Assembly: GCA_965227515.1 (NCBI GenBank)
Contig: CBDDFZ010000001.1
Coordinates: 2,912,001-2,976,000 of the forward strand
Reading direction: 5' to 3'
DNA from: Alphaproteobacteria bacterium
GTDB taxonomy: Bacteria > Pseudomonadota > Alphaproteobacteria > CALKHQ01
DNA length: 64,000 bases
Shown here: positions 38,599 through 54,602 of the stretch, one piece after another
Layout: every line of letters starts with the position of its first letter
Numbering within the stretch: position 1 is the stretch's first letter
The notes under the pieces: generated by a model
Told to the model about the DNA's origin: nothing
Seen by the model: only the letters and a program-made list of their open reading frames with translations
Databases searched by the model: none
Made by a program: the position numbers and the translations under genes

Positions 38599-39660
38599 AT
38601 GGAAAGCATTGCTAAACGGCGGCGGACGTCGCGCGGGGGCGTGACGATTCATGACGTGGCCGGTCGTGCCGGAGTCTCCACGGCGACGGTCAGCCGCGCG
38701 CTGATGACCCCGGAGCGGGTGCGGCCGGCAACGCGCGAAGCGGTGCTGCGTGCCGTCGCCGACACCGGCTACACGCCGAACCAGGCCGCGCGGTCGCTGC
38801 GCGCGCGCAAGACCATGATGGCGATGGTCATCGTGCCCAACGTCGGCAACGCCTTCTTCGTCGAGGTGCTGCGCGGCATCGACGCCGCGTTGTCGGAGGC
38901 CGGCTATGGCCTGATCATCGGGCATCTGGACAATTCCCACGCCAAAGAGCGCCATTTCGTCGAGCTGGCGCTGGCCGGGCAGGTCGATGGCGTCCTGCTG
39001 CTGAACGGCTGGATGCCGGTGAAGGACAATCGGCCGCTGACCGATGCGGGCATGCCGATCGTGTCGGTCGGCACGTATGTCGACAATCCAGAAATTCCCA
39101 AGATCATCGTGCGCAACCGCGAGGCATCGCAAGCCATTGCCGAGCACCTGATCGGTCTCGGCCACACCAGACTCGGCTACATTTCAGGTCCGCCGGGCAA
39201 CTGGGTCGACGGGCAGCGTTGGCAGGGGTTCAGCGAAGCAGTCGCGGCGGCGGGGCTGGACCCCGGCAGCATCCTGCGCTGGGGCGGACGGTTCGATTTC
39301 CATACCGGGGTCGCGGCGGCCGAGGCGTTCCTGAACGCGGCCCGCCGGCCGACCGCCGTGTTCGCCGCTAGCGACGAGATCGCCATCGGGTTCACAAAGC
39401 GGCTGCGCGCCGCGGACCTGGCCGTACCGCGCGATGTCTCGGTGGTCGGGTTCGACGGCATTGCCTTCGCCGAATTCTGCGAGCCGACGCTCACGACCAT
39501 TCTTCAGCCGCGGTTCGAGCTGGGGCGGGCGGGGGCCGCGGTGCTGTTGCGCATGCTGGAGGACCCGAACCACCGCCCGGACACCTGGACGTCGCTGGAT
39601 GCCGAGCTGGTGTGCCGCGAAAGCACCGCGCCGCCGCCGCCGTCGCAAAGCCACGCGTAG
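38599..39660 (+). CDS. LacI-family transcriptional regulator
   Basis: TIHDVAGRAGVSTATVSRAL, YTPNQAARSL, DVSVVGFDG. Confidence 0.96.
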   Translation: MESIAKRRRTSRGGVTIHDVAGRAGVSTATVSRALMTPERVRPATREAVLRAVADTGYTPNQAARSLRARKTMMAMVIVPNVGNAFFVEVLRGIDAALSEAGYGLIIGHLDNSHAKERHFVELALAGQVDGVLLLNGWMPVKDNRPLTDAGMPIVSVGTYVDNPEIPKIIVRNREASQAIAEHLIGLGHTRLGYISGPPGNWVDGQRWQGFSEAVAAAGLDPGSILRWGGRFDFHTGVAAAEAFLNAARRPTAVFAASDEIAIGFTKRLRAADLAVPRDVSVVGFDGIAFAEFCEPTLTTILQPRFELGRAGAAVLLRMLEDPNHRPDTWTSLDAELVCRESTAPPPPSQSHA

Positions 39661-39698
39661 GAGATGTTCCGGACGGCCACGCTAACTGATCAAATAAA

Positions 39699-39734
39699 GA
39701 ACATATTGACAACAATCACCTTGGCTGATATGGT
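39699..39734 (+). promoter_or_regulatory. sigma70 promoter overlapped by a LexA-type box
   Basis: TTGACA(39706)-N17-TATGGT(39729); GAAC-ATATTGA-CAAC at 39699-39713. Confidence 0.7.
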
Positions 39735-40060
39735 GCGTCTACAGTCAAAGTAGACTGTTCCTTCCGGCCAAGCCGCTGCATCGATCGTTGATCCGGCGGC
39801 CCCGGACGACCGCGGGAAAGACCGCCGGCAAACGGTGCCCGTCAGCGCCGAGGAAACGGCCCGCCGGCCGGCCCGCGCAGATCGCGCGCTCCCAACACGC
39901 CAACTTGCCTGCCGCCCTCCCTCGGGCGGGCCTTGGCGTGCCAGCGCGCTGGTTTTGTTTCTGGGGCGCAGACTCAGCCTTAGCGTCCAACAAGAAACTG
40001 CGTGCCGGCCGGCGGTCAACCGCTCCGCGCCTTCATCAACCAACTGAAGGAGACGTGGAA

Positions 40061-40948
40061 GTGTCTTTCGAAATCTCGACTTCGCATTCGCTGGACTACG
40101 GCGGCGCGGTTGCGCTCCGCCTGCAGCAGCGCGGGTCCAAGCTGCGCCCGACGGTGGAGGAGTCCGCCTTCAGGGGCAAGGCGGCGCGCGCTGTCGACCA
40201 GGTGGGCCCGGTCTCGGCGCAGAAGCGCACCACCCGCCACAGCGACACCCCGCTGATCAGCACGCCGCACTCGGCGCGCTGGATCTACCCCAACGACTAT
40301 GAGTGGGCGGACCTGATCGACGAGCAGGACAAGGTCCGCACCATCCACGAGCCGACCAACGCCTACACCGAGAACGGCGCCAATGCCCTGGGTCGCTCGA
40401 TGGACGATGAGATCATCACGGCGTTCTTCGGCACCGCCAAGACCGGCGAGAACGGCACCACCGACACCGCGTTCGACAGCGCCAACCAGACGGTGGCGGT
40501 CGACACCGGTGCCGGCGGCGCCACCGGCCTCAACGTCGCCAAGCTGCGCTATGCCAAGCGCATCCTGATGGCCAACGAGGTCGACGTCGACTACGAGCCG
40601 CTGTTCTGCGCCATCACCGCGCAGCAGCACGACGACCTGCTAAGCGAGACCCAGGCCATCAGCCTGGACTTCAACACCCGCCCGGTGCTGGTGGACGGCA
40701 AGATCTCCGCCTTCATGGGCTTCAACTTCGTCCATATCGAGCGCCTGCAGGTCGACGGCAGTTCCTATCGCCGCCTGCCGGTGTGGGGGCGCTCGGGCAT
40801 GCACCTGGGCGTGTGGGACGACATCGAGGGCAAGGTGACCGAGCGGGACGACAAGTCCTACTCCACCCAGGTCTATGTGCGCGGCACGTTCGGCGCGACG
40901 CGGACCGAGGAGGGCAAGGTCGTCGAAATCAAGTGTTCGGAAGCGTAG
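40061..40948 (+). CDS. podovirus-type major capsid protein
   Basis: GTG start after AAGGAG; LQQRGSKLR, RHSDTP, YEWADLIDEQDK, ALGRSMDDEII, FMGFNF, FGATRTEEGKVV. Confidence 0.85.
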   Translation: MSFEISTSHSLDYGGAVALRLQQRGSKLRPTVEESAFRGKAARAVDQVGPVSAQKRTTRHSDTPLISTPHSARWIYPNDYEWADLIDEQDKVRTIHEPTNAYTENGANALGRSMDDEIITAFFGTAKTGENGTTDTAFDSANQTVAVDTGAGGATGLNVAKLRYAKRILMANEVDVDYEPLFCAITAQQHDDLLSETQAISLDFNTRPVLVDGKISAFMGFNFVHIERLQVDGSSYRRLPVWGRSGMHLGVWDDIEGKVTERDDKSYSTQVYVRGTFGATRTEEGKVVEIKCSEA

Positions 40949-40959
40949 GGGGCTGAGCG

Positions 40960-41442
40960 ATGGCTGTGACCACACAACAGAGCACGCAACTGGCGCTGAC
41001 CGAGACCGAGCCGACCGATTTCAACCCCACCCACGAGTGGGCCGGGCGGCTGCGGTTCGCGCGCTTCGATTTCACCCAGTCCGGCGCCGGCGATGCCGGT
41101 TCGGTCGCCGAGCTGCTGACCCTGCCCGCCGGTAAGGTGCGGGTGGTGCTGCCGCTGAGCCGGATCGCGTTTTCCGCGCTCGGCGCCTCGCGCACCATGG
41201 ACTTCGGCTGGAAGGCCCATACCGGCGACGACGACGTCGCGGTGGCGGCCGACCCCAACGGCCTGGATGCCGCGGTCGACGTCTCCTCGGCCGGCTCGGT
41301 CAACCCCGGCGGCACTGTCGGCGGCGGCGAGACCTATCTGTTCGAGGCCAAGGCGGGCGTGACGCTCACCGCCACCATCAACGGCGGCACGTTCCCGGAC
41401 GCGGCGACGCTGAACGGCTACGTCGTCTACGTGGTCGACTGA
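40960..41442 (+). CDS. virion structural protein (capsid decoration/cement-like)
   Basis: 160 aa beta-rich protein ending YVVD, immediately after the capsid gene. Confidence 0.6.
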   Translation: MAVTTQQSTQLALTETEPTDFNPTHEWAGRLRFARFDFTQSGAGDAGSVAELLTLPAGKVRVVLPLSRIAFSALGASRTMDFGWKAHTGDDDVAVAADPNGLDAAVDVSSAGSVNPGGTVGGGETYLFEAKAGVTLTATINGGTFPDAATLNGYVVYVVD

Positions 41443-41507
41443 ACGTAGATGGACGAGCGACACCTTTCCGGCTGCGCGGTAGGGGAGAAGTGGTAGCCGG
41501 GAAACGG

Positions 41508-41546
41508 GGCGGGCGTGGGCAGCGATGTCCGCGCCCGCCTTTTGTT
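41508..41546 (+). terminator. intrinsic terminator after the head genes
   Basis: GGCGGGCGTGGGCA-gcga-TGTCCGCGCCCGCC followed by TTTTGTT. Confidence 0.8.
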
Positions 41547-41557
41547 CGCCATAGTTA

Positions 41558-41601
41558 GAACATAAGAGGAAAACAGATAGACAGAGGGTAGGTTGTATAA
41601 T
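41558..41601 (+). promoter_or_regulatory. LexA-type box and -10 element ahead of the cassette
   Basis: GAAC-ATAAGAG-GAAA (41558-41572); TATAAT at 41596. Confidence 0.55.
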
Positions 41602-41816
41602 AGTGTCTCTGTATCATCCAATACGTGCATCTGGCATCAATTCCGTTTGCATCGACGCGCGTGCTTGTGGCGCTGGAACGGCGCACGGCCTCGCCCAGGG
41701 CGAGTACATTCCCGGCGATCATTCGCGGCCGCTCAACACGGATGCGAGCTGCCGACAGCGTCATGCCGCAACGCCCAATTTTGGAGAATTCAGCGACTGA
41801 CGACAGGCGTCTCAGA

Positions 41817-42365
41817 ATGACAAACCCAACAATGCTGGCGACGGTGGCAATTCTTGCTGGGACCGTGCTGGGCTGTGCCCGTGGACCGGCAACACCACGG
41901 TTGGAGTACTACCCGCAAAATCCGGTTGAGCGTGCCCATGTCTGGCCCAGAACGATCGCAGAGGAATGTACCGCAGAATTCCTTAGATCGAAGGTGGCGT
42001 CGATGGTGTCGATTGATGATGCCGTCGACCGGTTTCAAGAGCTTGAATGGGACTGCGCCCAGAACGATCATGGTGCGGTGTGTACATTCGAGTTCACCTA
42101 TTTTGATGCTGCTATTCGCAAAGTATATGATCCAACTCTGTTCCAAAATGACGTTACTATACATATGGAGTTATTGGAGGTGGATGATCGAATATTCATT
42201 AACGATTTGAACTTCGAGGAGTTAACCTCAGAAGTAACTGAACAAGAATATCGCGCTGGGATGTTGGAGCTTCGGCAATTGGGTGATTTTCTGCCTAGCT
42301 CGGAGCTTTCGGTTGAGGACTATATGAACAACTGTGAGCCAGAGGTGCCTAGCAATGAGCAATGA
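41817..42365 (+). CDS. lipoprotein A (putative immunity protein)
   Basis: Lipobox VLG-C; YYPQNPVERA..WP, WDC, CTFEFTYFDAAIRKVYDP. Confidence 0.7.
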   Translation: MTNPTMLATVAILAGTVLGCARGPATPRLEYYPQNPVERAHVWPRTIAEECTAEFLRSKVASMVSIDDAVDRFQELEWDCAQNDHGAVCTFEFTYFDAAIRKVYDPTLFQNDVTIHMELLEVDDRIFINDLNFEELTSEVTEQEYRAGMLELRQLGDFLPSSELSVEDYMNNCEPEVPSNEQ

Positions 42366-42504
42366 GAATTGGCTTGTAGAAATGGGATCATATCCAATAC
42401 CAGGCATTGGTGGCGGGTATGCACACTGTTTTGTGGTGATCACGGATCCGCTGAGAAATCCGTGGTTAGTAAATTGCAACCGTCTTGCGACCTTTAAGGA
42501 GTGA
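42355..42504 (+). pseudogene. truncated copy of the 43040 gene (49 aa)
   Basis: MSNENWLVEMGSYPIPGIGGGYAHCFVVITDP, then diverges and stops. Confidence 0.8.
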
Positions 42505-43031
42505 AGAGAATGGCAATCCAACACATTTTTGTTTTCGTAACCATCGCCCTTTCGGCGGTGGGGTGTTCACGCCAACCTTCAGCTCCTGCGTACGATTTCT
42601 ACCCCACAAATGAAATTGAGCGTGCATATTATTGGCCTGATGGCACACGCCAGGATTGTATCATCAGGCTCTTAAATAGCCGGCTGTCCGGCAGTCATGG
42701 CCTAGATGATATAGATGGTATTTTATCAAACATGGGTTGGTCGTGCGAATTGGATGGTGATCGACAAACTTGCACCTATTCATTTTCTTACTACGACAGC
42801 GCTATTCATAAAGTTTATGATCCAATTCGAATTCGTTATGATATCGAAATTCAGTCAGGTATTGCCCTTGGTGATTTTGATCAAATGATATCTAGTGTTG
42901 TTCTGAAGAATGAGAGAAATGAGGTGTCAGAGAATGAATACCGCATAGCGATTAGTCAAGGTTATGCCGACGGACGATATAGTGACGAAAGTCCGCCGTC
43001 GTTTTCTGATTTAGCCGCGAACTGTGAGTGA
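42501..43031 (+). CDS. lipoprotein B, paralog of lipoprotein A
   Basis: Lipobox AVG-C; FYPTNEIERAYYWP, WSC, CTYSFSYYDSAIHKVYDP. Confidence 0.75.
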   Translation: MKRMAIQHIFVFVTIALSAVGCSRQPSAPAYDFYPTNEIERAYYWPDGTRQDCIIRLLNSRLSGSHGLDDIDGILSNMGWSCELDGDRQTCTYSFSYYDSAIHKVYDPIRIRYDIEIQSGIALGDFDQMISSVVLKNERNEVSENEYRIAISQGYADGRYSDESPPSFSDLAANCE

Positions 43032-43039
43032 GGCCGAAG

Positions 43040-44062
43040 ATGGCAAGAAATGAGAATTGGCGAGTTGAGATGGGTTCGTATCCGATCCCAGGGATTGGTG
43101 GCGGATACGCGCACAGCTTCATCATGATCATCGACCCGATGGGCAACCGCTACCTGTTCGAAGGGCATGGTAAGGGGCGAGAAGGCACCGACGAGCCTGG
43201 TGGCTGGGAGCACTTCATTCCTTTTTATGATGATAGCATCAGTGCGGGAGAAGGGGACATATTCTTTGCGCACGAGCGCAATCGTTTCCTACTCTTCGAG
43301 GGGCCGAAGGAGATTGTATTTGACCAGATCCGGTCGGCACTGATTCTGGTATCCAATGCTATCAATGATGCCGATTTGGACTACGAGCCGATCACGTTGG
43401 ATCCGTTTGACGAAGCACAGAATAGCAATAGCGTTGTCCGCACCTACACCGATGTCATCGAGGCAATTGTCGAGCGCAATGGTGGTGAGTACCTGGGTGT
43501 CCCCGATTACTACACTGACGACGAGGTGCTGTGGCATCAGAACAATTCGGTCTATCTGCCGGGCTGGGATCGCAATCTGCTCGACCAGATTGGTGTCGAC
43601 ATACCGGATCTGATCGAGCAAGCGGCACCTACGTCCCTGCCATTGCCATTGCACGGTCAACCCAGGGGCGCGCAGGATCAAGCGCTCGTGGGTGGGCAGC
43701 GTTCCGATGCCGCGACCACGTCAGTTTCGGGCGCCGCATCCGGTAGTGCCGCGGCCCGCGGTAATGCCTCCACGCGGACGTCGGCGACGTCGTTGCTGGG
43801 GAGATTATCGGCTGCCACGAGTTCGGCAACCGCCAAAAGTACCGGCAGCAAGACAGCCAAGAAAGCAGCCGACGGCAAACTGGCCAAGGCGCTCAGTCAA
43901 CCGCGTGACCCATGGGAATCGCTACTGACGGTGCCAGGGGCCTCCATGAACAAGCGCCAGAAAGAACAAATAGTGAAAACGCGCGCTTCGTCGACAATCG
44001 CGACCCGACGTTCGGGCCGGCGACGGCGACCTGACCACGATGTTGTAGCGCCGACCGCCTAA
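43040..44062 (+). CDS. hypothetical protein, putative effector with low-complexity C-terminal linker
   Basis: ENWRVEMGSYPIPGIGGGYAHSF ... DYEP..QNSNSVV; then a Ser/Ala/Thr/Lys-rich tail. Confidence 0.7.
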   Translation: MARNENWRVEMGSYPIPGIGGGYAHSFIMIIDPMGNRYLFEGHGKGREGTDEPGGWEHFIPFYDDSISAGEGDIFFAHERNRFLLFEGPKEIVFDQIRSALILVSNAINDADLDYEPITLDPFDEAQNSNSVVRTYTDVIEAIVERNGGEYLGVPDYYTDDEVLWHQNNSVYLPGWDRNLLDQIGVDIPDLIEQAAPTSLPLPLHGQPRGAQDQALVGGQRSDAATTSVSGAASGSAAARGNASTRTSATSLLGRLSAATSSATAKSTGSKTAKKAADGKLAKALSQPRDPWESLLTVPGASMNKRQKEQIVKTRASSTIATRRSGRRRRPDHDVVAPTA

Positions 44063-44078
44063 CCGATACCGCTTCGCC

Positions 44079-44106
44079 GGGCGCCCATCACGAGGCGCCT
44101 TTTTTT
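44079..44106 (+). terminator. hairpin plus U-tract after the cassette
   Basis: GGGCGCC-catcacga-GGCGCCT followed by a T run. Confidence 0.6.
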
Positions 44107-44136
44107 GTTTCCCGAACCCCCTGCAACGGAGGCCCC

Positions 44137-44694
44137 ATGTCCTCGATCGTGGACATCTGCAACCGCGCGCTCGACAAGCTGGGCGAGCAGCCGATCACCT
44201 CGCTGGCCGACGACACCAAGCCGGCGCGCGCCTGCAACCGCGCGTTCGAGCCGGTGCGCGACGCGGTGCTGCGCGACCATCCGTGGAACTTCGCCATCGC
44301 GCGCGCAGCACTTGCTGCCAGCACGACGGCGCCGGCCTGGGGCTATGCCGCGCAGTACACGCTGCCGGTCGACTGCCTGCGGGTGGTGACGGTGGACACC
44401 ACTTGGCCGTGGACGGTGGAGGGTCGGGCGATCCTGACCGATGCCGGCGCGCCGCTCTACATCCGCTATGTGCGCCAGGAGACCGACGCCAGCCTGTTCG
44501 ATCCGCTGTTCGTGGAGGCGCTGGCCGCCCGGCTGGCGGTGGAGCTGTGCGAGGGGCTGACCCAGTCCAACACCAAGCGCGACATCGCGACCCGCTCCTA
44601 CAAGGAGATCCTGGCCCGCGCCCGTGCCATCGACGGCCGCGAAGCCTCCGCCGAGACCTTCGCCGACACCGCGTGGTTCGAAGCCCGGCGTTGA
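44137..44694 (+). CDS. tail tubular protein A/adaptor (T7 gp11-like)
   Basis: VDICNRALDKLGEQPITSL, RDAVLRDHPWNFA, YTLPVDCLRV, FDPLFVEALAARLA. Confidence 0.85.
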   Translation: MSSIVDICNRALDKLGEQPITSLADDTKPARACNRAFEPVRDAVLRDHPWNFAIARAALAASTTAPAWGYAAQYTLPVDCLRVVTVDTTWPWTVEGRAILTDAGAPLYIRYVRQETDASLFDPLFVEALAARLAVELCEGLTQSNTKRDIATRSYKEILARARAIDGREASAETFADTAWFEARR

Positions 44695-44731
44695 TTGTGT
44701 TGATCCGCTGACTTGAACGATCCGAATCATA

Positions 44732-44746
44732 GAACAAATAACGAAC
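44732..44746 (+). promoter_or_regulatory. alphaproteobacterial LexA box (perfect)
   Basis: GAAC-AAATAAC-GAAC in the intergenic gap ~20 bp before tail tubular B. Confidence 0.75.
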
Positions 44747-44765
44747 TTATAACCGCGAGACTGCC

Positions 44766-46817
44766 ATGCCCAAGGCCACACCTTTGCTCACCAACTTCAC
44801 CGCCGGCGAATGGGCGCCGACGCTGGAGGGCCGGATCGACCAGCAGAAATACGGCAACGCCTGCCGCCAGATGCGCAACATGTACCCGCTGCTGCACGGC
44901 CCGGTGCAGCGCCGCGCCGGCACCCGCTTCGTGCAGGAAGCGCATGATTCCAGCGTCGCCTGCCGCCTGCTGAGCTTCGAGTTCTCCACCGAACAGGCGT
45001 ATGTGCTGGAGTTCGGCGACGCCACCATGCGCGTGTTCATGGACCGCGGTATCGTGGAGACCGCGCCGGACACGCCGCTGGTGGTGACCAGCCCGTATGC
45101 CGCCGCCGACCTGTTCGCGCTGCGCACCGCGCAGTCCGCCGACGTGCTCTACATCGTCCACCCGGACTATGCGCCGCGCACGCTCACCCGCACCAGCCAC
45201 ACGAGCTGGACGTTCGCCGAGCTGTCGCTGCAGGACGGGCCGTACCTGCCGGTCAACGTCAGCGCGACCACGATGACGCCGGGCGCGCTCTCCGGCAGCA
45301 CGACGATGACCGCCAGCGCGGCGACGTTCGCGTCGACCGATGTCGGCCGGGTGCTGCGCTATCGCCCGACCACGGCGGCGGACTGGGGCTGGGCGCGCAT
45401 CACTGGCTTCACCAGCGCCACGGTGGTCGACATCACGTGGCACGCATCGCCCGGCGGGTCCGCCGGCGCGTCGACCGAATGGCGCCTCTGCGTGTGGTCC
45501 GACACCACCGGCTGGCCGACCACGGTGACGTTCTTCCAGGACCGGCTGTGCTTCGCCGGGGCGGCCGGCAGCCCGCAGCGCATCGACATGTCGCGCAGCG
45601 GCGACTACACCGCATTCGCGCCGACCGACCCGGATGGCAGCGTTGCCGATGATCACGCCGTGGGCGTCACCCTGAACGCCAGCAATGTCAACGCCGTGCG
45701 CTGGCTCGCCGACGACGAGAAGGGCCTGCTCGCCGGCTCGGTCGGCGGCGAGTGGATCGTGCGGCCGTCGTCGCTGGGCGAGGCGATCACGCCCGCCAAC
45801 GTGCAGGGCGCGCGCTCGACCAATTTCGGCAGCGCCGACGTGGCCCCGTTGCGGATCGGCCGCGCCGTGCTCTACGTCCAGCGCGCCCGGCGCCGGCTGC
45901 GCGAGCATGCGTTCGTGTTCGAGGACGACGGCTTCCGCTCGCCCGACGTCAGTATCCTGGCCGAGCACCTGATCAGCCCCGGCGTGGTCGAGATGGTCTA
46001 CCAGCAGGAGCCGTCCAGCATCGTCTGGGTGGTGCGCGTCGACGGGCGGCTGCTGGGCCTGACCTACGTCCGCGAGCAGGACGTGCTGGGCTGGCACCTG
46101 CACACGCTGGGCGGCCATGCCGATGCCGGTGACACGACGCCGGCGGCGGTGGAGAGCATCGCCACCATCCCGTCGCCGTCGGGCGACCGCGACGAGCTGT
46201 GGCTGGTGGTGCGCCGCCACATCGATGGGGCGACGGTGCGCTACGTTGAGTACATGGAGGCGCCGCTGGCCGAGGGCGGGGAGGGCGAGGACGCCTTCTA
46301 CGTCGATGCCGGGCTGACCTACGACGGTGCCGCGGCCGACACCATCACAGGCCTCGACCATCTGGAAGGCGAGACGGTCAGCGTGCTGGCCGATGGCGCC
46401 ACCCATCCCGACGTCACCGTTTCGGGGGGCGCGATCAGCCTGGAACGCGAGGCGGCGAAGGTGCAGGTCGGCCTGGGCTACGCCTGGCTGATGCAGACCA
46501 TGAACATCGAGGCGGGCTCGGCCTCGGGCACCGCCCAGGGCAAGACCAAGCGGCTGCATCGCTGCATCGTGCGGCTGCGCAACACGCTGGGCGCCACGGC
46601 GGGGCCGGACGAGACGACGCTGGACCCGATCCCGCAGACCATGTTCCGCCCGGCATCGGTGCCGATGGACCAGGCGGTGCCCTTGTTCAGCGGCGATGCC
46701 GACCTCGCCTGGCCGGGTGGCTATGAGTCCTTCGGCCGGGTGACCATCGGCGGCAGCCTGCCGTTGCCGGCCATGGTGGTCAGCATCACGCCGTTCCTGA
46801 TCACGCAAGATCGGTAG
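44766..46817 (+). CDS. tail tubular protein B/nozzle (T7 gp12-like)
   Basis: NFTAGEWAP.LEGRID, GPVQRRAGT, QSADVLYIVHP, GWPTTVTFFQDRL, EQDVLGWH. Confidence 0.85.
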   Translation: MPKATPLLTNFTAGEWAPTLEGRIDQQKYGNACRQMRNMYPLLHGPVQRRAGTRFVQEAHDSSVACRLLSFEFSTEQAYVLEFGDATMRVFMDRGIVETAPDTPLVVTSPYAAADLFALRTAQSADVLYIVHPDYAPRTLTRTSHTSWTFAELSLQDGPYLPVNVSATTMTPGALSGSTTMTASAATFASTDVGRVLRYRPTTAADWGWARITGFTSATVVDITWHASPGGSAGASTEWRLCVWSDTTGWPTTVTFFQDRLCFAGAAGSPQRIDMSRSGDYTAFAPTDPDGSVADDHAVGVTLNASNVNAVRWLADDEKGLLAGSVGGEWIVRPSSLGEAITPANVQGARSTNFGSADVAPLRIGRAVLYVQRARRRLREHAFVFEDDGFRSPDVSILAEHLISPGVVEMVYQQEPSSIVWVVRVDGRLLGLTYVREQDVLGWHLHTLGGHADAGDTTPAAVESIATIPSPSGDRDELWLVVRRHIDGATVRYVEYMEAPLAEGGEGEDAFYVDAGLTYDGAAADTITGLDHLEGETVSVLADGATHPDVTVSGGAISLEREAAKVQVGLGYAWLMQTMNIEAGSASGTAQGKTKRLHRCIVRLRNTLGATAGPDETTLDPIPQTMFRPASVPMDQAVPLFSGDADLAWPGGYESFGRVTIGGSLPLPAMVVSITPFLITQDR

Positions 46818-46828
46818 TAGGGCGAGTC

Positions 46829-47266
46829 ATGGAACTCGTACCGTTCCGGCCCGCCCATCTGGCGCGGCTGAGGCTGCAGCGCGCCCAGGTCCATCTCGGC
46901 GTGCTGCTGGACGATCCCGGTTACGGCGTGGCACTGGCCGAGGCCGGCCCCGCGTTTACGGGAGTTCATCGCGGCGCGGTCGTCGGGTGCGCCGGCCTGT
47001 CCGAACTGTCGCCGGGCCGGGCCTATGCCTGGGCGCTGTTGTCCGACTGCCGCGCGGTGCCGTTCCGGGCCGTGCACCGTGCCGTCGTCGACGTGCTGAA
47101 TGCGAGCCCTGTCCGCCGGATCGAGACCGCTGTCGACAGCGGGTTTGGCGCCGGCGAGCGCTGGGCGCGCTTGCTCGGCTTCGGGTGGGAGGGGCGGATG
47201 CGCGCCTATCTGCCGGATGGCGGCGACGCCGAACTCTATGCCCGCATCCGCTCGCCGGATGCCTGA
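46829..47266 (+). CDS. GNAT-like protein (T7 gp13 position)
   Basis: VGCAGL..AWALL, RIETAV, WARLLGF..EG.MRAY. Confidence 0.65.
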   Translation: MELVPFRPAHLARLRLQRAQVHLGVLLDDPGYGVALAEAGPAFTGVHRGAVVGCAGLSELSPGRAYAWALLSDCRAVPFRAVHRAVVDVLNASPVRRIETAVDSGFGAGERWARLLGFGWEGRMRAYLPDGGDAELYARIRSPDA

Positions 47267-47300
47267 CCGCCACCAGTACAAACCACGAGGAGAGACGCCC

Positions 47301-47723
47301 ATGGGCGCGGACATCTTCACCATCGGCACCACGCTGCTGACCACGCTTGCCAACGTGTCGCAGCAGCGCGCCCGTGCGGACGGCGCCGACAACCAGGCGC
47401 AATTCGCGCGCGCCCAGGCCGCCGCCGATGCGGCCGAGGTGCGGCGCAAGGCGCGCAAGGACCTGTCGACACGCCGGGCGCGCATCGGTGCCGCCGGCAT
47501 CACCGTGGAGGGCTCGCCGATCGAGATCCTGGCCGATACCGCGGCCGAGCATGAGATCGAGGCCAAGGACATCGAGAACAGCGGCGCCCTGTCGGCCTAT
47601 CGACACGACCTGACGGCGGATCAGGCGCGGTCCGAAGCCGGCAAGGCCTTGCTGGGCGGGTTCAACACGATCGGCCGCTCGGTGCTGTCGGCCGCCCCGT
47701 CACGTGGACGCACTGGCACATAG
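47301..47723 (+). CDS. small internal virion protein (gp14-like)
   Basis: RARIGAAGITVEGSPIEIL motif in an Ala-rich helical protein. Confidence 0.65.
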   Translation: MGADIFTIGTTLLTTLANVSQQRARADGADNQAQFARAQAAADAAEVRRKARKDLSTRRARIGAAGITVEGSPIEILADTAAEHEIEAKDIENSGALSAYRHDLTADQARSEAGKALLGGFNTIGRSVLSAAPSRGRTGT

Positions 47724-47760
47724 GCGCACTGGCACGTAGGCGCACTGGCCCGTAGGCGCG
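47709..47760 (+). repeat. 16-bp tandem repeat x3
   Basis: Variants of GCGCACTGGCACGTAG spanning the stop codon of the gp14-like gene. Confidence 0.8.
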
Positions 47761-47813
47761 GGCCTCACCCCACTTCCCGACCATTGGAGACCATGATGAT
47801 GCGATCCCATGAC

Positions 47814-48284
47814 ATGGCTGACGCTACGCCGCAGGACCCCGGTCCCCTCGACCTGGGTCCATATGCCGGCGAACCGCCGGCCGACCCAAACGATTTCGAC
47901 TTCTCTTCGATCCGTCTGGACCCGGACGTGCCGATCGAGGCGCACCAGCGCGCGCTGGAAACGGTGCGGGCCTGGTTCACCGAAGCCGGCCTGTCGCTGG
48001 GCGAGGCCCAGACGCTGGTCAACCGCTTCAACGAGGCGATGGACCCGTACTCCAGTCGACCCGAAGGCGAGGGCGACGACCTCACCGCAGCCGCGCGCCA
48101 TTACCTGACCGTCCGCTGGGGCGATCATTTTGAACAAAACATGAATATCGTTGCCGACGCCATCCAGCGGCTGGGCGGCAATGCGCTGGAGGCGATGCTG
48201 CGCGCCGCCCACCTGCGGTTCGACCCGTTCGTCGTGCGCACGATCTTCAATGTCGCCGCGCGCAAGGGATGGGCCGACGCATGA
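47814..48284 (+). CDS. capsid scaffold-like protein (short)
   Basis: PPADPNDFDF, AGLSLGEAQTL, LTVRWGDHFEQNM, DPFVVRTIF resemble podophage assembly scaffolds; start uncertain (47784-47814). Confidence 0.55.
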   Translation: MADATPQDPGPLDLGPYAGEPPADPNDFDFSSIRLDPDVPIEAHQRALETVRAWFTEAGLSLGEAQTLVNRFNEAMDPYSSRPEGEGDDLTAAARHYLTVRWGDHFEQNMNIVADAIQRLGGNALEAMLRAAHLRFDPFVVRTIFNVAARKGWADA

Positions 48285-48925
48285 CGGCACAGCCCAACAC
48301 CATGCCCGACCGGCCGCGCGCCGGGACGGGCAACGGCCTGATCGCCGACGTAGACCTCGGCGAACGGCTGGATGCCCTGTTGGCCAAACGCGATGAGGCA
48401 TTTGCACGACTGACCGACCTGGAAGCCAAGCGCGCCCATCTGGCCCTGCAGGTGCACGGTGGCGACAAGGCGGCGGAGAAGGAGCTCAACCGGACCCGCT
48501 CGCAGATTGCCCGGCAGTCGGCCCTGGCTGCCGATCTGGACGCCGCCGTCGATGTCGCCCACGCCCGAATCGCAGAGGCCGATGGCTCGGCGGCGGCGGT
48601 CGCGGACGACAGCATGGCATCAATCGTGCGTGAACTTGGCGCCCGGCGGTTGGAGCTGGCGCGCGAGATCGAGGGCCACGTCGAGTCGGTCGCCGAAGCC
48701 TATCGCCGCATGCTGCGCCTGACCGACGAATTCCGTCTGGCCGGGCTGGCAAATGGCCCGCTTGGCGCTGAACTCAACCGCTTCCGCGACCGGTTTGGCT
48801 TCTACCTGGAGACCATGCTTGACTTTGTGGGAGGCAGCCCTGTTCATTGCAGCCATCCGCACTATCGTCGGCTGGCGGCATTGCTGCTGGATGGCGATGC
48901 GTTGGCGTCGTTGCGGTCGCGTTAG
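48281..48925 (+). CDS. coiled-coil hypothetical protein
   Basis: ATGA overlap with the upstream gene; heptad-rich. Confidence 0.65.
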   Translation: MTAQPNTMPDRPRAGTGNGLIADVDLGERLDALLAKRDEAFARLTDLEAKRAHLALQVHGGDKAAEKELNRTRSQIARQSALAADLDAAVDVAHARIAEADGSAAAVADDSMASIVRELGARRLELAREIEGHVESVAEAYRRMLRLTDEFRLAGLANGPLGAELNRFRDRFGFYLETMLDFVGGSPVHCSHPHYRRLAALLLDGDALASLRSR

Positions 48926-49063
48926 CAGGCTGGCGCACCGGGGCAGCAGAGGGCCGGCCGGGGCGGTTGCCTTATTGGATCGGCGTCAGGTAATGACACG
49001 CGTATCGAAGGCGCAAATGCTATCCAGAGCGCAGCCAGGATCGCGCTGCTTCGGGACCACCTA

Positions 49064-49756
49064 GTGCAAGAATTCCTCGCCAATATCGTCACCACCTTCG
49101 GCGACCTCGTCGCATCGTTCGGCTACATCGTCATCGGGCTGGTCATTCGCCGGCTGTGGGCGGTCATCCTGCTCGCGGTGGTGTGGGCGGTCATTTCGTA
49201 CGGCCTCTATCAGTCGGACCAGCTCGGCATCGAGATTACCGAGGTGGTCAATCAGATCGACTGGGACGCGGCGCAGGAGACGTTGCCGATACGCCTCGTC
49301 ATCGCGGTCGTCATCAGCGCGTTCGCCTGGTTCTGCATGAGCCTGATGATCGGCAGCTTCCGGCCGCGCAAGCGGCGCCGGGCGGCGGCCGCATCGGCGC
49401 GGGAGATGCCGAGCGACAAGCTGCCGCCGCTGCCACGCGGTGCCGGCGGGGGCAGGGGCGATGGCCGGCAAGAGCCGTCCTTCGTCGCGCCGGCGCCGGA
49501 TGCCGGTCAGGTCGCGGCACCAGTGGCCACGGCCGCTGCCGCACCGGCGATGATGGAGCCTGCGGCACCGCCGCCGATGACGCCGCCCATACCGCAGCAG
49601 CCGGCCGAGGCGCCGGTGGCTCCCCCTGCGTCTGGCGACGATGCCTACGGTCCGGCGGCCACTGCCGACAAGCTGGGGCGCATCTACTCCGAGCGGGAAC
49701 TGGACGACCTGATCGCCGCCCTGCAGGAAAAGCGCGCGCGCCCCTCCGAAGACTGA
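49064..49756 (+). CDS. membrane protein with Pro/Ala-rich C-terminus
   Basis: Three hydrophobic segments followed by a low-complexity tail. Confidence 0.65.
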   Translation: MQEFLANIVTTFGDLVASFGYIVIGLVIRRLWAVILLAVVWAVISYGLYQSDQLGIEITEVVNQIDWDAAQETLPIRLVIAVVISAFAWFCMSLMIGSFRPRKRRRAAAASAREMPSDKLPPLPRGAGGGRGDGRQEPSFVAPAPDAGQVAAPVATAAAAPAMMEPAAPPPMTPPIPQQPAEAPVAPPASGDDAYGPAATADKLGRIYSERELDDLIAALQEKRARPSED

Positions 49757-49816
49757 CCGGTTGCCGGGCTGCCTGATGGCGGTCCGTCCGGTTGCGTCTC
49801 GAAAAAGGAACAAAAC

Positions 49817-50791
49817 ATGACCATTAGCTCTACGCATAGCCGCGTCGGCTATGCCTGCGACGGGGCGACGACGGTGTTCAACGTCACGTTTCCGTTCTTC
49901 GATGGCGATGACCTGGAGGTCATCGAACGCGTCGCCGTCAGCGGCGCCGAAACGCTGAAGGCCAATGGCGCCGACTACGCCGTCACCGGCGGCGGTGGAT
50001 CGACCGGTACCGTTGTGGCGACGGCGGCGCCGGCATCTGGCCTGGAATGGCACGTGCGGCGCGTCACCGGGCGGTTGCAGCAGACCGACTACACGGCCAA
50101 TGACCCGTTCCCGGCGGAAACGCATGAGACCGCGCTCGACCGACTGACGGCCATCGCCCAGGAACTCGACGAGCAGGGCAGCCGCGCGCTGCGCTACCCG
50201 TCGACCGACAGCTCGTCCCTGTCCGCGGCGATCCCGAACAGCGTCGACCGCGCCAGCGCCTATCTGGCGTTCGATGCCAGCGGCGAGCCCATCGCGTCCA
50301 CCGGGCCGACCGGCGACAGTGCGATCCCGGTGTCGACCTACGCCGAGACGCTGTTGGACGATGCCGACGCCGCCACCGCGCGGGCAACGCTGGGCCTCGG
50401 CACGGCCGCGGTCGGCGATATCGGCACCGACGTCCAGGCCTACGACGCCGACACGCTGAAGGCGGACACCGACGACACCCTGACCGCCGGGTTCGCGGCC
50501 ACCGCCGAGGACCTGGGCACCATCACCACCGGCACGACGACGCTGGCATTCTCGAACAGCAACGTGAAGACGGCGCTCAACGGTGGCGCGCACACGCTGG
50601 CGCCGCCGTCGAGCGGCGAGGGCACGATCGTGCTGCAACTCACCAACAACGGCAGTGCCGGCGCGGTGACCGTGTCGGGTTTCACCGCCGTGACCGGCGA
50701 CAGCCTGACCACGACCGACGGCGACGACTTCCTGCTCTACGTCACCCGGGTCAACGGCTTCTCCCACCTGCATGCGGTGGCGCTGCAATGA
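49817..50791 (+). CDS. tail fibre protein (T7 gp17-like N-terminus)
   Basis: YACDGATTVFNVTFPFF, QQTDY..NDPFPAETHETALDRLT, ARATLGLG. Confidence 0.8.
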   Translation: MTISSTHSRVGYACDGATTVFNVTFPFFDGDDLEVIERVAVSGAETLKANGADYAVTGGGGSTGTVVATAAPASGLEWHVRRVTGRLQQTDYTANDPFPAETHETALDRLTAIAQELDEQGSRALRYPSTDSSSLSAAIPNSVDRASAYLAFDASGEPIASTGPTGDSAIPVSTYAETLLDDADAATARATLGLGTAAVGDIGTDVQAYDADTLKADTDDTLTAGFAATAEDLGTITTGTTTLAFSNSNVKTALNGGAHTLAPPSSGEGTIVLQLTNNGSAGAVTVSGFTAVTGDSLTTTDGDDFLLYVTRVNGFSHLHAVALQ

Positions 50792-51570
50792 CCTTTCCGT
50801 TTCCAGTCCCACCGCCGGTGGCGGGGATCGTCACCGACGGCTTGGCGCTGCACCTGGATGCCGGCGATGCCGCGTCCTACGGCGGGTCGGGCCAGACGGT
50901 CACCGACCTGTCCGGTGCGGGCAACGACTTCTATCTGGGGTCGACCAGCGGTGTCGAAAGCGTCGATCCGGCCTTCAATGGGGTGGCCGGCGCCAAGAGC
51001 GGCAGCGAGTATTTCTCGACCGATGGCGGCGACCATATGGACCTGGCGGCAGCGCATTCCGGCGAATTCATCCGCGAGGTGGGGCGCAGCGACACGCCGA
51101 CAACCATCGAGCTGTGGGTCTACATGGCCACCAGCTCCAGCGAGCAGATGCTGTTCTCCAACAGCTACTCGGCCAGCGGGCCAGCGACGACCGGCATTCA
51201 GTTCTACTGGTTGTCCGGCGACGGGCTGCGCATGTCGACGGTCGGCAGCTCGACATCCAACACGCAAGACACGTCGGGCACGTTCTCGTTGGCGGCGTGG
51301 CACCAAATCGCCTGGGCCGGCCAGCTCGACGGGGCCACGACCTGCCGCTTCCTGGTCGATGGGGTGACCGACAGCACGTACACCAAGGCGGGCCTGTTCA
51401 CGGCGGGCGACAGCACCTATGTGCCCCGCCTGATGCGCCGCCAGGGCTCGCCGTTCTACGGCATGGAAAGCGGCGGCCGGCTGGCCATCGCGCGGATCTA
51501 CAGCCGCGTCCTGAGCGAGGCGGAACTGCAACGGAACTTCAACGCCCAGAAATCGAGGTTCGGCCTATGA
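50788..51570 (+). CDS. LamG/concanavalin-like domain protein
   Basis: IVTDGLALHLDAGDAASY, DLSGAGN, WHQIA, RIYSRVLSEAELQRNFNA. Confidence 0.8.
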   Translation: MTFPFPVPPPVAGIVTDGLALHLDAGDAASYGGSGQTVTDLSGAGNDFYLGSTSGVESVDPAFNGVAGAKSGSEYFSTDGGDHMDLAAAHSGEFIREVGRSDTPTTIELWVYMATSSSEQMLFSNSYSASGPATTGIQFYWLSGDGLRMSTVGSSTSNTQDTSGTFSLAAWHQIAWAGQLDGATTCRFLVDGVTDSTYTKAGLFTAGDSTYVPRLMRRQGSPFYGMESGGRLAIARIYSRVLSEAELQRNFNAQKSRFGL

Positions 51571-51917
51571 CCGACTACATCGACCCCAACGACCCGACAG
51601 GCCGGCGCTACCCCGCCGGCGTGTCGCGGCAGAAGCTGCCGAATGGCGACACCTGCCTGACGCCGCTGGACGAGAATACCGCCATGACCGCCGGCCTGCT
51701 GCCGGTGGAAGAGGTGCGGCCCGCCCTGGCTGACGATGAGGAACTGGGCGACCCAACCCCGGAGGTGCGCGCCGACAAGGTGGTGCTGACCTACGCCAAG
51801 CGCCGCAGGTCCGCGACCGATCTGGCCGCCGAGGCCCGTGCGCGCCGCGACCTGCTGGCGGAGCTGGATGCGCTCGCCGCCCGCGTCGACGCATTGGAAA
51901 TTCAACTGCAACCCTAG
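51567..51917 (+). CDS. small tail-associated hypothetical protein
   Basis: ATGA overlap; C-terminal coiled coil LAARVDALE. Confidence 0.6.
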   Translation: MTDYIDPNDPTGRRYPAGVSRQKLPNGDTCLTPLDENTAMTAGLLPVEEVRPALADDEELGDPTPEVRADKVVLTYAKRRRSATDLAAEARARRDLLAELDALAARVDALEIQLQP

Positions 51918-51927
51918 GAGATTTCAC

Positions 51928-52329
51928 ATGATCCGTTATCGCGCCGCCCTCGGGGCCCTCCCCTGGGCGGCTTTTTTGTTGGCGGTTTGGCTCGGCATGT
52001 CCCTGGTGGCGGCGCGGGCCGATGCCCAGGATTGCCGGTCGCCGATGGACATCGTGGCGGCGGCCGCCGCCGATGGCGTGGAGGTGGTCGTGCTCGACCC
52101 GGCGGCCTCCGCGACCGCCATGGCGGCCTACAACGCCATTCCCCCGGTCACCGCCTATGCCCATGACACGGTGGCCTACGCGCCGGTGATGACCCAGCGC
52201 GGTCCGGCCGTGGTGTGGATGTTCTTTGCCGATGGCTGTTTGGCCGCCCACGACATCCTGCCGGTCGGCCTGTCCGAACGGCTGTTCGACGCCATTGCCG
52301 GCGGCGGCGGGCAACCTGTCGGTGGTTGA
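51928..52329 (+). CDS. secreted hypothetical protein
   Basis: RBS AGGAG; signal peptide ending ARADA; two Cys. Confidence 0.6.
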   Translation: MIRYRAALGALPWAAFLLAVWLGMSLVAARADAQDCRSPMDIVAAAAADGVEVVVLDPAASATAMAAYNAIPPVTAYAHDTVAYAPVMTQRGPAVVWMFFADGCLAAHDILPVGLSERLFDAIAGGGGQPVGG

Positions 52330-52347
52330 GCCGATTGCGGTGCCCCG

Positions 52348-52803: not shown

Positions 52804-52819
52804 CAGGAGACTGTCTGAC

Positions 52820-53719
52820 ATGCACATCGACTCAGACGGCTGGATCGACGGGGCGACCCGCCGGCCCAGCCCGCACGTCGGCGGCGAGATAGAGCCGCTG
52901 ATCGTGGTCAACCACTGGACCGCCGGCGGCGGTGCCGACATCTCGGTCCAGGTGCTGGAGAACCGGGGCCTGTGCGCCCAGCTGGTCGGCCCGCGCGAGG
53001 GCGGGTTCATCCAGTGCGCGCCGCTACACCGCTTCGGCCACCACGCCGGGGTGTCGTCGTGGCGTGGCATGTCGAGCTGCAGCCGGTTCGCCATCGGCAT
53101 CGAGTGGGCGAACTGGGGGCCGCTGTTCTACGACGAGAAGCACGGTCAGTGGTTCACTGCCTATTTCAACGAGCGCACGGGCCTCAGCGTGCCCTACCAC
53201 GGCGCCGAGCCGGTGAAGGTGAAGGGCACCGGGGTGACGATCCAGCATCACGGCGGGCCCTGGCAGGCGGCCGACTGGTTCGAGCCGTTCTCGCCCTATC
53301 AGATCGAGACGGCGGAGGAGGCGCACCTGGCAATGGCCGCGCGCTATCCCTCGCTGGTCGAGGCGGTCGATCACGCCACCATCTGCCCCGGCCGCAAGGT
53401 CGATTGCATTCCCTGGCAGCCGATGATCGCCGGCTGGGGCCAGGCGTTCGCCGGCCGTGACCTGCAACAGAGGCCCAGCGTGGGGCCGGCGAGCGAGGCC
53501 GACCGCCCGCTGACCAACGCGCGCCGCGCGCAGGAGGCGCTGAACGCCCTAGGCCACCGCGGGCGCGACGGCAAGCCGCTGCTGCCCGACGGCATCATGG
53601 GGCCGCAGACCCACCACGCGATCCGCAGTTTCCAGATCGCCCAGGGCCTGCAGAAAACCGGGGTGCTCGACAGCGCAACCGTGCCGCTGCTGCTGCCGGA
53701 GGAACAGGCAGCGGCCTGA
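52820..53719 (+). CDS. N-acetylmuramoyl-L-alanine amidase with C-terminal PG-binding domain (endolysin)
   Basis: NHWTAG, HHAGVSSW, IGIE, DHATICPGRKVD; DGIMGPQT..AIRSFQ..GL..TGVLD. Confidence 0.88.
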   Translation: MHIDSDGWIDGATRRPSPHVGGEIEPLIVVNHWTAGGGADISVQVLENRGLCAQLVGPREGGFIQCAPLHRFGHHAGVSSWRGMSSCSRFAIGIEWANWGPLFYDEKHGQWFTAYFNERTGLSVPYHGAEPVKVKGTGVTIQHHGGPWQAADWFEPFSPYQIETAEEAHLAMAARYPSLVEAVDHATICPGRKVDCIPWQPMIAGWGQAFAGRDLQQRPSVGPASEADRPLTNARRAQEALNALGHRGRDGKPLLPDGIMGPQTHHAIRSFQIAQGLQKTGVLDSATVPLLLPEEQAAA

Positions 53720-53787
53720 CCGCCCCTCAATCCCTGACCTGACCGCCCGGCACCTGCCGGGTTTTTCATGCCTGAACGGAGGTGAGA

Positions 53788-53949
53788 ATGCAGCGATTCA
53801 ACAAGGCCACCGCGGCCGCCGTTGCCGGCGCCATCGGCGTCGTCATCGGTGCGGTCTTTCCGGAGATCGAGCCCGAGGTGGTCGCGGCCGGCACCACCAT
53901 CGTGACCGCACTGCTGGTCTACCTGGTGCCGAACCGGGAGGCGGCCTGA
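53788..53949 (+). CDS. putative holin (53 aa, two TM)
   Basis: Manual translation MQRFNKATAAAVAGAIGVVIG...TALLVYLVPNREAA. Confidence 0.65.
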   Translation: MQRFNKATAAAVAGAIGVVIGAVFPEIEPEVVAAGTTIVTALLVYLVPNREAA

Positions 53950-54445: not shown

Positions 54446-54515
54446 CCGAAGCCGTGCACCGGGCTGCGCCAAACGATTGCCTTTCGGGCCGCGTTTGCAC
54501 TAGGTTCCACCGCGT

Positions 54516-54592
<77 letters not shown>

Positions 54593-54602
54593 TCACTCAA
54601 TC

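Follow-up and report, generated by a model that had tools for sequence, protein, structure and literature searches.

A 64,000-nucleotide stretch of the genome of a marine-type alphaproteobacterium (hereafter the window) carries podovirus-type head, tail and lysis genes, several of them preceded by sequences that resemble binding sites of the host SOS repressor LexA. Are these genes wired directly to the DNA damage response and, if so, what do they now make? The boxed and scattered head, tail and packaging genes suggest a tamed virus-like particle that is built upon DNA damage.

The Window Module

The module in the window consists of the following features:

39688..39713, +, tandem LexA-type boxes (39688-39702 and 39699-39713; 14.0 and 10.4 bits)
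39706..39734, +, sigma70-type promoter match TTGACA-17-TATGGT, the best such match in 39.5-55 kb
39762..39875 (limits approximate), +, non-coding capsid leader, conserved in G001 and L330 (alignment)
40061..40948, +, major capsid protein (PF19821, phrog_3437), the genome's single copy
40960..41442, +, 160-aa gene after the capsid gene, with no family match, 71-73% identical in G001 and G003
41506..41545, +, hairpin and U-run, likely terminator of the capsid unit (z = -6.1; equal stability in 0 of 200 shuffles)
41558..41572, +, LexA-type box of the tail-operon promoter (14.5 bits), 5 nt 5' of its TAGACA -35 (41578-41583)
41817..44062, +, low-GC variable cassette with two paralogous lipoprotein-like genes, a 340-aa gene and the weak site 43964
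44079..44108, +, terminator-like hairpin and T-run directly 5' of tail tubular protein A (folding z only -1.3)
44137..44694, +, tail tubular protein A (adaptor; phrog_394, E 1e-61)
44732..44746, +, perfect LexA-type box in a 71-bp AT-rich gap 5' of the nozzle gene (20.2 bits, rank 4)
44766..46817, +, nozzle (tail tubular protein B; PF25675, phrog_376), in all four family genomes
46829..47266, +, 145-aa conserved phage gene (phrog_4177), which we take to be GNAT-like
47301..47723, +, small internal virion protein, T7 gp14-like (phrog_418, E 4e-15; PF24072 below cut-off)
47784..49756, +, three small genes (166, 214 and 230 aa) kept in the family, the 166-aa gene containing 48132-48146
49808..49822, +, LexA-type box over the RBS and ATG of the fibre gene (14.8 bits)
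49817..51570, +, T7-type tail fibre (N-terminal domain) and lectin-domain protein (phrog_1640, PF13385)
52820..53719, +, amidase endolysin with peptidoglycan-binding domain (PF01510, PF01471)
54516..54592, +, tRNA-Pro(GGG), closing the module as in G001, with an IS481-type transposase next

The capsid protein is 54% identical to that of Ralstonia phage DU_RP_II and 45% identical to that of pelagiphage HTVC010P, and the capsid promoter sits at the break that separates scaffold from capsid. The box at 41558 had been described in a sequence-only reading of this DNA as standing before the cassette. We can rule out that it is the cassette's own promoter element, because the box is conserved at the tail promoter whereas the cassette is swapped or absent elsewhere: G003 lacks it, and a close strain has 1123 different bases in its place. 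The box instead belongs to a conserved tail-operon promoter into whose leader the variable cassette has been inserted. Atlas look-alikes of the 340-aa cassette protein include TseH-like clusters at 0.90, which is a lead only. At the other end of the module, no exact 16-mer of the tRNA-Pro(GGG) gene is repeated elsewhere.

LexA-Type Boxes

The alphaproteobacterial LexA motif is a GTTC-N7-GTTC direct repeat (PMC8565304). An unseeded motif search found a GAAC-starting site in 18 of 18 lexA/recA promoters, and the boxes in the window carry the motif of this genome's own lexA and recA promoters, which confirms the LexA type at the sequence level. All six 15-mers quoted in the sequence-only reading are where it placed them on the + strand. 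The site at 44732 is indeed a perfect GAAC-N7-GAAC repeat, one of only six such sites in the 5.52-Mb genome that have a GAACA start and at least four A/T in the spacer. A seventh site had been overlooked at 39688 (GATCAAATAAAGAAC); its second half-site is common to 39699, and thus the two form a tandem that covers the TTGACA -35 of the capsid promoter, where 39699 had been placed.

The scoring matrix was trained on 33 sites taken from 18 lexA/recA promoters in nine genomes, with no other promoters in the training set. Within 39600-54600 there are five matches of at least 14 bits, against 0.12 expected under a uniform distribution. Local shuffles gave 0.18-0.19 expected matches and reached five in 0 of 2000 trials, and 60 column-permuted matrices gave a mean of 0.27 and a maximum of 2 over the same interval. 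Across the whole element, 7 of 16 intergenic regions have a match of at least 14 bits compared with 19 of 3128 other regions (matched expectation 0.24; seven reached in 0 of 5000 draws), and 6 of 15 do so when the C2 module is left out. The check that had been proposed for this locus, a matrix from recA/lexA promoters with an enrichment test, thus returned five strong matches where AT-matched regions, local shuffles and permuted matrices all predict about 0.2, and the density is not that of the background. Location at promoters above background is a property of the set and not of every single site.

The sites are uneven in strength. Their genome-wide ranks are 4 (44732), 5 (48132), 29 (49808), 33 (41558), 47 (39688), 142 (43964) and 241 (39699); with a matrix trained without this genome they are 8, 1, 17, 15, 32, 114 and 1161 in the same order, and the host's own recA site then ranks 784. 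Taken alone, 39699 is weak. Both 43964 and 48132 had been called weaker intragenic copies; they do lie in coding sequence, and 43964 is weak, but 48132 scores high, although its site is not conserved in any of the three relatives aligned. The box at 49808 overlaps the RBS and start codon of the fibre gene as claimed, and a general RBS-plus-ATG artefact can be rejected there, as none of the 3981 called ATG starts scores 14 bits or more in this register. Judged by motif and enrichment, LexA very probably binds the boxes of the element. The ssb promoter has no site of at least 8 bits, which suggests that the predicted host regulon is compact. Among the top matches elsewhere in the genome are mmcB and genes for a GIY-YIG nuclease and an SNase-type nuclease.

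A Split Gene Set and Its Probable Regulator

The cluster in the window makes up one half of a podovirus-type gene set that has been split. The terminase, portal and scaffold genes are found at a distance of 320 kb (C1:2.63 Mb), behind a DUF6456 gene and further boxes, which rank 2 and 13 genome-wide. The two boxes of this packaging module are at C1:2632547 and C1:2633182. The genome has one portal, in this distant module with a terminase, and one capsid of these families, and all its PF03237 matches belong to the element or to two islands. The element probably also includes an accessory lectin module, located on the second replicon. Virion and packaging genes are thus distributed over several loci, as in gene transfer agents (GTAs), and we found no integrase or replication genes linked to them. 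An intact temperate prophage would look different, since the element is not contiguous and lacks integrase, repressor, replication genes and the full set of ejection genes. In related viruses the gp14-like gene is followed by two large ejection genes, which are missing here. Searches by tblastn with 686 viral ORFs, and then with the 149 of at least 400 aa, found no ejection genes outside the known modules and only two weak local matches (C1:3459221 and C1:4035190), although very divergent genes could escape such searches.

According to the sequence-only reading, the structural genes answer to the host SOS repressor rather than to a phage late regulator. This part is not supported: the packaging module opens with a DUF6456 gene (GafZ/GafA C-terminal family), the only one in the genome, and this gene carries a box of its own. 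A phage-type late regulator therefore probably exists and is itself boxed, and control looks two-tiered. The protein scores above the PF20057 cut-off, is stand-alone and divergent, and its match is far weaker than those of GafA-type proteins (E 5e-12 vs 1e-31 to 1e-59). The model of its fold was poor (pLDDT 45). The HTH-S24 repressor of the element is present in all three genomes of the sister genus and was not found in this one.

Conservation across the Family

All four genomes of the family carry the element, and two of them, from two genera whose RecA proteins diverge by 10-12%, have it at the same tRNA site. Boxes stand both before and after the DUF6456 gene in all four. Conservation in the sister genus extends to three boxes, namely those before DUF6456, before the small terminase and at 41558; the last is present in all three family genomes that cover the locus, scoring 20.9 bits in G001 and 12.1 bits (tandem) in G003, each 6 nt before TTGAC. 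The sites at 39688/39699, 43964, 44732, 48132 and 49808 have no box at matching places in the relatives covering them: the capsid-leader position lacks one in G001 and L330, the gap before the nozzle gene in G001 and G003, and the fibre start in G001 and G002. In L330 the scaffold lies directly 5' of the same capsid leader (alignment), and a new promoter and boxes appear at the scaffold-capsid break in this genome. The capsid module of G001 is also separated, yet no box occurs within 420 bp. No difference at the boxes is among those listed in a comparison with a close-strain contig. The proposed module-by-module SOS wiring is consequently borne out in that boxes are enriched at module heads, whereas this wiring is largely specific to this genome, five of the seven window sites being unconserved in the relatives.

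The SOS wiring had also been read as a strong sign of domestication. Several marks support domestication: the split loci, the lack of linked integrase or replication genes, the presence in the whole family and dN/dS below 1, at 0.22-0.65 in 26 of 27 comparisons and 0.97 in one (four genomes, GC-biased dS), which may point to vertical inheritance under purifying selection. Neither portal nor scaffold was detected in the fragmented assemblies of G002 and G003. In G003 there is an insertion after DUF6456, and the C-terminal half of the terminase lies elsewhere without an adjoining portal, which may represent decay. The portals of the family adjoin virus portals in the tree, so that the capture may be young.

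A Proposed LexA-Gated Particle and Its Alternatives

We give about even chances to the hypothesis that the element encodes a LexA-gated, GTA-like particle, a podovirus reduced to a particle-making kit. The family would have inherited a podovirus with an HTVC010P/DU_RP_II-type capsid, whose pieces in this genome are the regulator and packaging genes at C1:2.63 Mb, the head, tail and lysis genes in the window and probably the lectin module. Host LexA would repress these pieces directly; DNA damage would remove LexA, and the DUF6456 protein would then be made and let RNA polymerase read through the terminators of the structural region. Heads would package any DNA that the terminase encounters, and lysis of the cell would follow. 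Since the gp14-like protein is retained but the two large ejection proteins are absent, DNA might reach only the periplasm of the recipient and would need its ComEC for uptake, as in RcGTA; comEC is present in nine of nine genomes, which as a common gene proves little. We infer antitermination, particles and DNA transfer from the genes, and the loss of the ejection proteins could equally mean that no DNA is delivered. In this genome, the element repressor appears to have been lost while extra boxes arose at the break point and inside the operon.

The missing ejection proteins also fit a LexA-controlled, domesticated particle that does not transfer genes and, set free from damaged cells, serves as a weapon, decoy or protein carrier, with the swappable cassettes as payload or immunity. 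The cassette is variable and resembles effector-immunity pairs, and a separate, widespread podoviral head-tail cluster of similar design has no terminase match in 24 of 29 genomes. However, G000 and G001 retain an intact terminase, portal and scaffold with dN/dS of 0.40-0.55, G003 has no cassette at this place and the effector likeness is a lead only, and we consider this explanation unlikely. We rate somewhat lower a slowly decaying prophage remnant without a useful particle, in which boxes merely silence costly head and lysis genes after loss of the repressor. Loss of repressor and ejection genes, modules broken apart and partly missing in G002 and G003, and the close virus relatives all agree with decay, but the frames are open and dN/dS is below 1 across both genera, the boxes are already there in genomes that keep the repressor, and a damage-inducible repressor is a poor permanent silencer.

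It is improbable that the kit is kept mainly as a helper for satellites, with two integrase-bearing islands borrowing heads after SOS induction. These islands (L038 and L039) carry an integrase, an AAA_25 protein, a small terminase and a split large terminase as well as a large virion protein. They have neither capsid nor portal, in a genome with a single portal and capsid of these families. Their terminases are 59-60% identical to that of the element and 100% identical to each other, and L038 alone matches the phrog_684 virion profile. Against this, phrog_684 is found in none of the three sister-genus genomes, where the kit is still kept, and borrowing accounts for exploitation and not for maintenance. 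The 949-aa island protein, considered as a gp15 homologue, has no significant match to a viral ejection protein. That the boxes are chance AT-rich sequence or sites of another regulator, as mismatches in several sites, the low leave-out rank of 39699 and the intragenic position of 43964 and 48132 might suggest, is very improbable given the background of about 0.2, the motif shared with lexA and recA, and a genome with no element repressor to own such a motif.

Comparison with Known Systems

The proposed LexA-gated particle resembles the Caulobacter GTA and its RogA-GafYZ control module (PMC9632790, PMC11150451) in several ways. Both systems have an HTH and S24 repressor of about 213 aa, a DUF6456-family protein, terminators within the structural region and genes in several loci. 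They differ in that the virion genes of the element are podoviral (PF12236 portal, nozzle, gp14) and not the long-tailed RcGTA set, and in that LexA-type boxes lie directly on its module promoters, whereas LexA is unmentioned in PMC11150451. No GafY-like partner was seen adjoining the stand-alone DUF6456 gene. RcGTA and DsGTA (PMC9638019, PMC6473078, PMC9662315) share with the element a multi-locus genome, a DUF6456 activator, a link to LexA and uptake by recipient Com proteins; LexA is required in Rhodobacter capsulatus, where it seems to work by way of CckA, and LexA sites at the GTA cluster of D. shibae are predicted only. RcGTA has a prohead protease, major tail and tape measure, and in place of the RcGTA-like (Rhodogtaviriformidae) head-tail genes the element has T7-type portal, nozzle and gp14-like genes. 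Among 37 genomes that have a strong match of GafA type, just one has a PF12236 portal (kin not independent). BaGTA was domesticated independently, and its processive antiterminator, like the putative one here, is encoded at a distance from the capsid locus. It differs by its run-off replication module, its larger capsid gene of about 370 codons and its baseplate/tail-collar annotation (10.1101/2024.11.20.624540, PMC5496983, PMC9662315); the element is set apart from it by annotation only.

HTVC010P-type pelagiphages and DU_RP_II are close to the element by capsid, and related virus contigs have the same gene order (portal-Bbp19-scaffold-capsid-tail A-nozzle). These contigs, however, are contiguous, keep the two large ejection genes and show no enrichment of LexA-type boxes (15 vs 26 expected).

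SOS-induced tailocins and LexA-using prophages are phage-derived particles tied to DNA damage and lysis. Tailocins have no heads and use their own cleavable repressor, whereas the element keeps capsid, scaffold, portal and terminase and is therefore not a tailocin. A literature search, with most subscription papers beyond its reach, found no description of this element.

Significance and a Widespread Cluster of Similar Design

Two captures gave rise to the alphaproteobacterial GTAs known so far, which are tied to DNA damage indirectly or by prediction only. We tentatively propose, as a possibility short of probable, that the element is a third, podovirus-derived type that is fired directly by the SOS response, has dropped its two large ejection proteins and hands DNA to the competence machinery of the recipient, with a late step of taming in this genome (repressor lost, boxes gained at each separated piece). 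If true, LexA boxes on the promoters of such a podovirus-derived, multi-locus element would couple the release of particles directly to DNA damage, and single box mutants would make it possible to test whether GTAs provide templates for repair. Set beside the sister genus, this genome shows regulatory rewiring at a known break point.

The first gene of the widespread cluster mentioned above encodes a 121-aa protein that we compared with the DUF6456 protein, and homology was rejected (hhalign probability 0.5). Host and cluster divergence correlate among 22 genomes (Mantel r 0.24; 30 of 2000 permutations), but the signal fades with one genome per family (r 0.09; 592 of 2000), which leaves deep co-divergence unsupported. 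A third GTA type would also point to this cluster as a much wider sister system: podoviral head-tail genes, mostly without a terminase, that are combined with a RogA-like repressor and SOS boxes and occur in many families of Alphaproteobacteria lacking GafA. Portals of this family are present in 111 of 401 sampled genomes.

LexA-Type Boxes in the Element

The sequence-only reading described recurrent LexA-type boxes in the phage-like cluster, and this observation is confirmed: all six quoted sequences are present, and a seventh box at 39688 forms a tandem with 39699 across the -35 of a promoter-like sequence that matches at 10 of 12 positions. PMC8565304 gives the alphaproteobacterial LexA motif as GTTC-N7-GTTC. 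An unseeded Gibbs search recovered a GAAC-starting 15-mer from 18/18 promoters (nine lexA and nine recA). In G000, the genome of the window, the lexA promoter carries a perfect GAAC-N7-GAAC and a reverse copy, and the recA promoter carries a one-mismatch copy resembling those of the cluster.

We built a matrix from 33 pattern-picked sites in these promoters, with element sequence excluded from training. It gave five matches of at least 14 bits in 39600-54600 versus 0.12 expected under a uniform model; local shuffles of this interval predicted 0.18-0.19 and reached five in 0 of 2000 cases, and 60 permuted matrices yielded at most two. Density also exceeds the AT-matched background, since 7 of 16 element intergenic regions were positive versus 19 of the remaining 3128, and random draws matched for AT content and length gave 0.24 on average. 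The C2 module, which supplies one of these 16 regions, was itself found via the matrix (6/15 without it), and the gene caller overlooked the actual start of the fibre gene and the low-GC genes of the cassette, leaving coding sequence inside three "intergenic" stretches. When G000 was left out of training, 48132, 44732, 41558, 49808, and 39688 stayed in its top 32 sites and 39699 fell to rank 1161, close to the genome's own recA site (rank 784). LexA control of the element is likely.

A one-mismatch reverse match directly 5' of tRNA-Pro (54493-54507; only 3.9 bits) is probably due to chance. The top-ranked box of G000 precedes a 118-aa gene without a Pfam match (L027:5566-5989; C1:2760565).

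Composition of the Element

The window module encodes a capsid of the HTVC010P/DU_RP_II podovirus type, tail tubular protein A (tail A), tail tubular protein B (nozzle), a gp14-like protein, a fibre, a lectin protein, and an endolysin, with tRNA-Pro at its end. The window lacks a portal and a terminase; the sole PF12236 portal of G000 lies at C1:2635678, 320 kb from the cluster, in a packaging module with the order DUF6456 (GafZ/GafA-type), 113-aa gene, large terminase (two genes), 69-aa gene, portal, Bbp19, and scaffold.

Boxes of the packaging module on replicon C1
Before DUF6456: genome rank 13
Before the 113-aa gene: genome rank 2
Before the 69-aa gene: 10.6 bits

No protein family matches the 113-aa product; this gene is a putative small terminase on the basis of its location and of its similarity to a G002 gene, which occupies the position at which G001 shows a weak PF03592 match. 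A third candidate piece lies on replicon C2 (543369-541383) behind tandem boxes (rank 3); the first of its genes resembles one in the related G041 element (38%, E 1e-5), and the second encodes a lectin domain. Both main modules are flanked by host genes and an IS481-type transposase, and no integrase or replication gene was seen at these flanks.

The ATPase and nuclease of the large terminase are separate genes (L024:8693-10250), likewise in G001 and in two islands of G000, and form one chain in G041, G042, and G044. The cassette (41817-44062) shows a tandem duplication: two lipoprotein-like paralogues (31% identical) each precede the start of the 340-aa gene, the first copy of which is truncated. 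A 214-aa protein (48281-48925) resembles viral hypothetical proteins; its nearest named cluster is Psu (0.89), a likeness we regard as a lead only.

Conservation among Relatives

All four family genomes have the nozzle and one DUF6456 gene each, and in each of them boxes of 16.6-22.9 bits lie on both sides of DUF6456. In the sister genus, represented by three genomes (G001-G003), the downstream box directly adjoins a -35 of TTGAC or TCGAC type, and an HTH-S24 repressor, absent from G000, is divergent from DUF6456. Box 41558 has counterparts in G001 and G003, each 6 nt 5' of TTGAC. It does stand before the cassette, as had been proposed, but it is the box of the tail promoter rather than the cassette's, because the G003 promoter leads directly to tail A; in a close strain another cassette follows it.

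The positions corresponding to 44732 in G001 and G003, 49808 in G001 and G002, 43964 in G001, and 48132 in G001, G002, and G003 showed no box. The G001 capsid has no box within 420 bp, and a 17.4-bit match lies 2.15 kb upstream. On a same-family metagenome contig the scaffold is directly joined to the capsid leader without a box; in G000 the promoter and tandem boxes lie just upstream of this conserved leader, at the scaffold-capsid break. The non-coding leader (39762-39875), kept in three family members, is possibly a structured RNA or protein-binding element.

Related elements occur in five more distant genomes, four of which have DUF6456 and a divergent repressor; a weaker box (9.4-14.2 bits in the three scored) separates these genes, and capsid and nozzle showed no box. 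In G041, G042, and G044 the element encodes a 937-1043-aa protein (L143:9278-12091, L144:8920-12051, L146:10309-13419) with a common N-terminus and variable position, without a Pfam match in the two scanned. Neither 80 virus contigs (773 kb; 15 matches versus 26 expected) nor 78 metagenome loci (22 versus 28) showed enrichment; as sequences of unassigned host they are weaker controls.

Origin and Proposed Function

By gene content the element is not RcGTA-like; nor is it a tailocin or an intact prophage. The comparison with BaGTA drew on its published descriptions (PMC9662315, PMC5496983). Our literature search found no description of the element. We consider a GTA-like function about an even bet.

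Domestication, proposed earlier from the boxes, meets evidence on both sides. dN/dS by the Nei-Gojobori method, which GC bias probably inflates here, was 0.22-0.65 in 26 of 27 comparisons; the remaining value was 0.97. Capsids are 80-82% identical where RecA has 88-90% and LexA 84-86%, and the G001 module ends at the same tRNA. Against domestication, neither portal nor scaffold turned up in the fragmented assemblies of G002 and G003, and a tree placed the family portals as sister to a mostly-virus group, its viruses having been selected by similarity to the element's capsid.

The sequence-only reading set the host SOS repressor against a phage late regulator; this either-or is wrong, given that a boxed DUF6456 gene heads the packaging module. 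DUF6456 is the annotation of GafA homologues (PMC9638019). PMC9632790 and PMC11150451 describe Caulobacter gafYZ as repressed by RogA (HTH plus S24) and GafZ as an antiterminator, and BaGTA uses an antiterminator too, according to bioRxiv 2024.11.20.624540. Terminator-like hairpins at 41506 (z -6.1) and 44079 (z -1.3) would be obstacles for such a factor to overcome.

Beyond motif placement, we infer every step of the following mechanism. DNA damage would trigger LexA cleavage, which would switch on DUF6456 and the module promoters; packaging and then lysis would follow, and DNA would be delivered to the periplasm. In T7, gp14 is an outer-membrane pore and gp15/gp16 span the periplasm and inner membrane (PMC8954989). 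Among ten mapped virus contigs, those reaching beyond gp14 have one or two large genes at that point (about 530-950 aa), which three small genes replace in the family element. Com proteins mediate GTA DNA uptake in R. capsulatus (PMC6473078), and comEC is present in 9/9 genomes checked.

Other Elements

In an even sample of 401 genomes from the class, 111 encode a PF12236 portal; of 37 with a strong GafA-type match, just one does. On the tree, 31 of 49 host portals form a separate clade, with an HTH-S24 repressor in 27/31 loci and a box no more than 2.6 kb upstream of the portal in 18/31 versus 1.9 expected; 24 of its 29 genomes gave no PF17289 terminase match. This clade is a lineage distinct from the window element, with similar logic. 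Its widespread cluster (L240-L259 and L290-L309, e.g., L243:8399-10344 and L259:9913-18585) sits among housekeeping genes and comprises the repressor, a divergent 121-aa gene, small genes, portal, scaffold, 272-aa capsid, tail A, nozzle, and fibre. The repressor presumably resembles Caulobacter RogA, and the cluster may make DNA-free particles.

Two islands of G000 (L038:2593-12570 and L039:6087-16736; C1 near 1.75 and 3.33 Mb) adjoin tRNA-Phe and tRNA-Lys. Each carries an integrase, a small terminase, a single large protein, and a split large terminase that is identical between the two. Both lack capsid and portal and are candidate satellite-like exploiters of the element.
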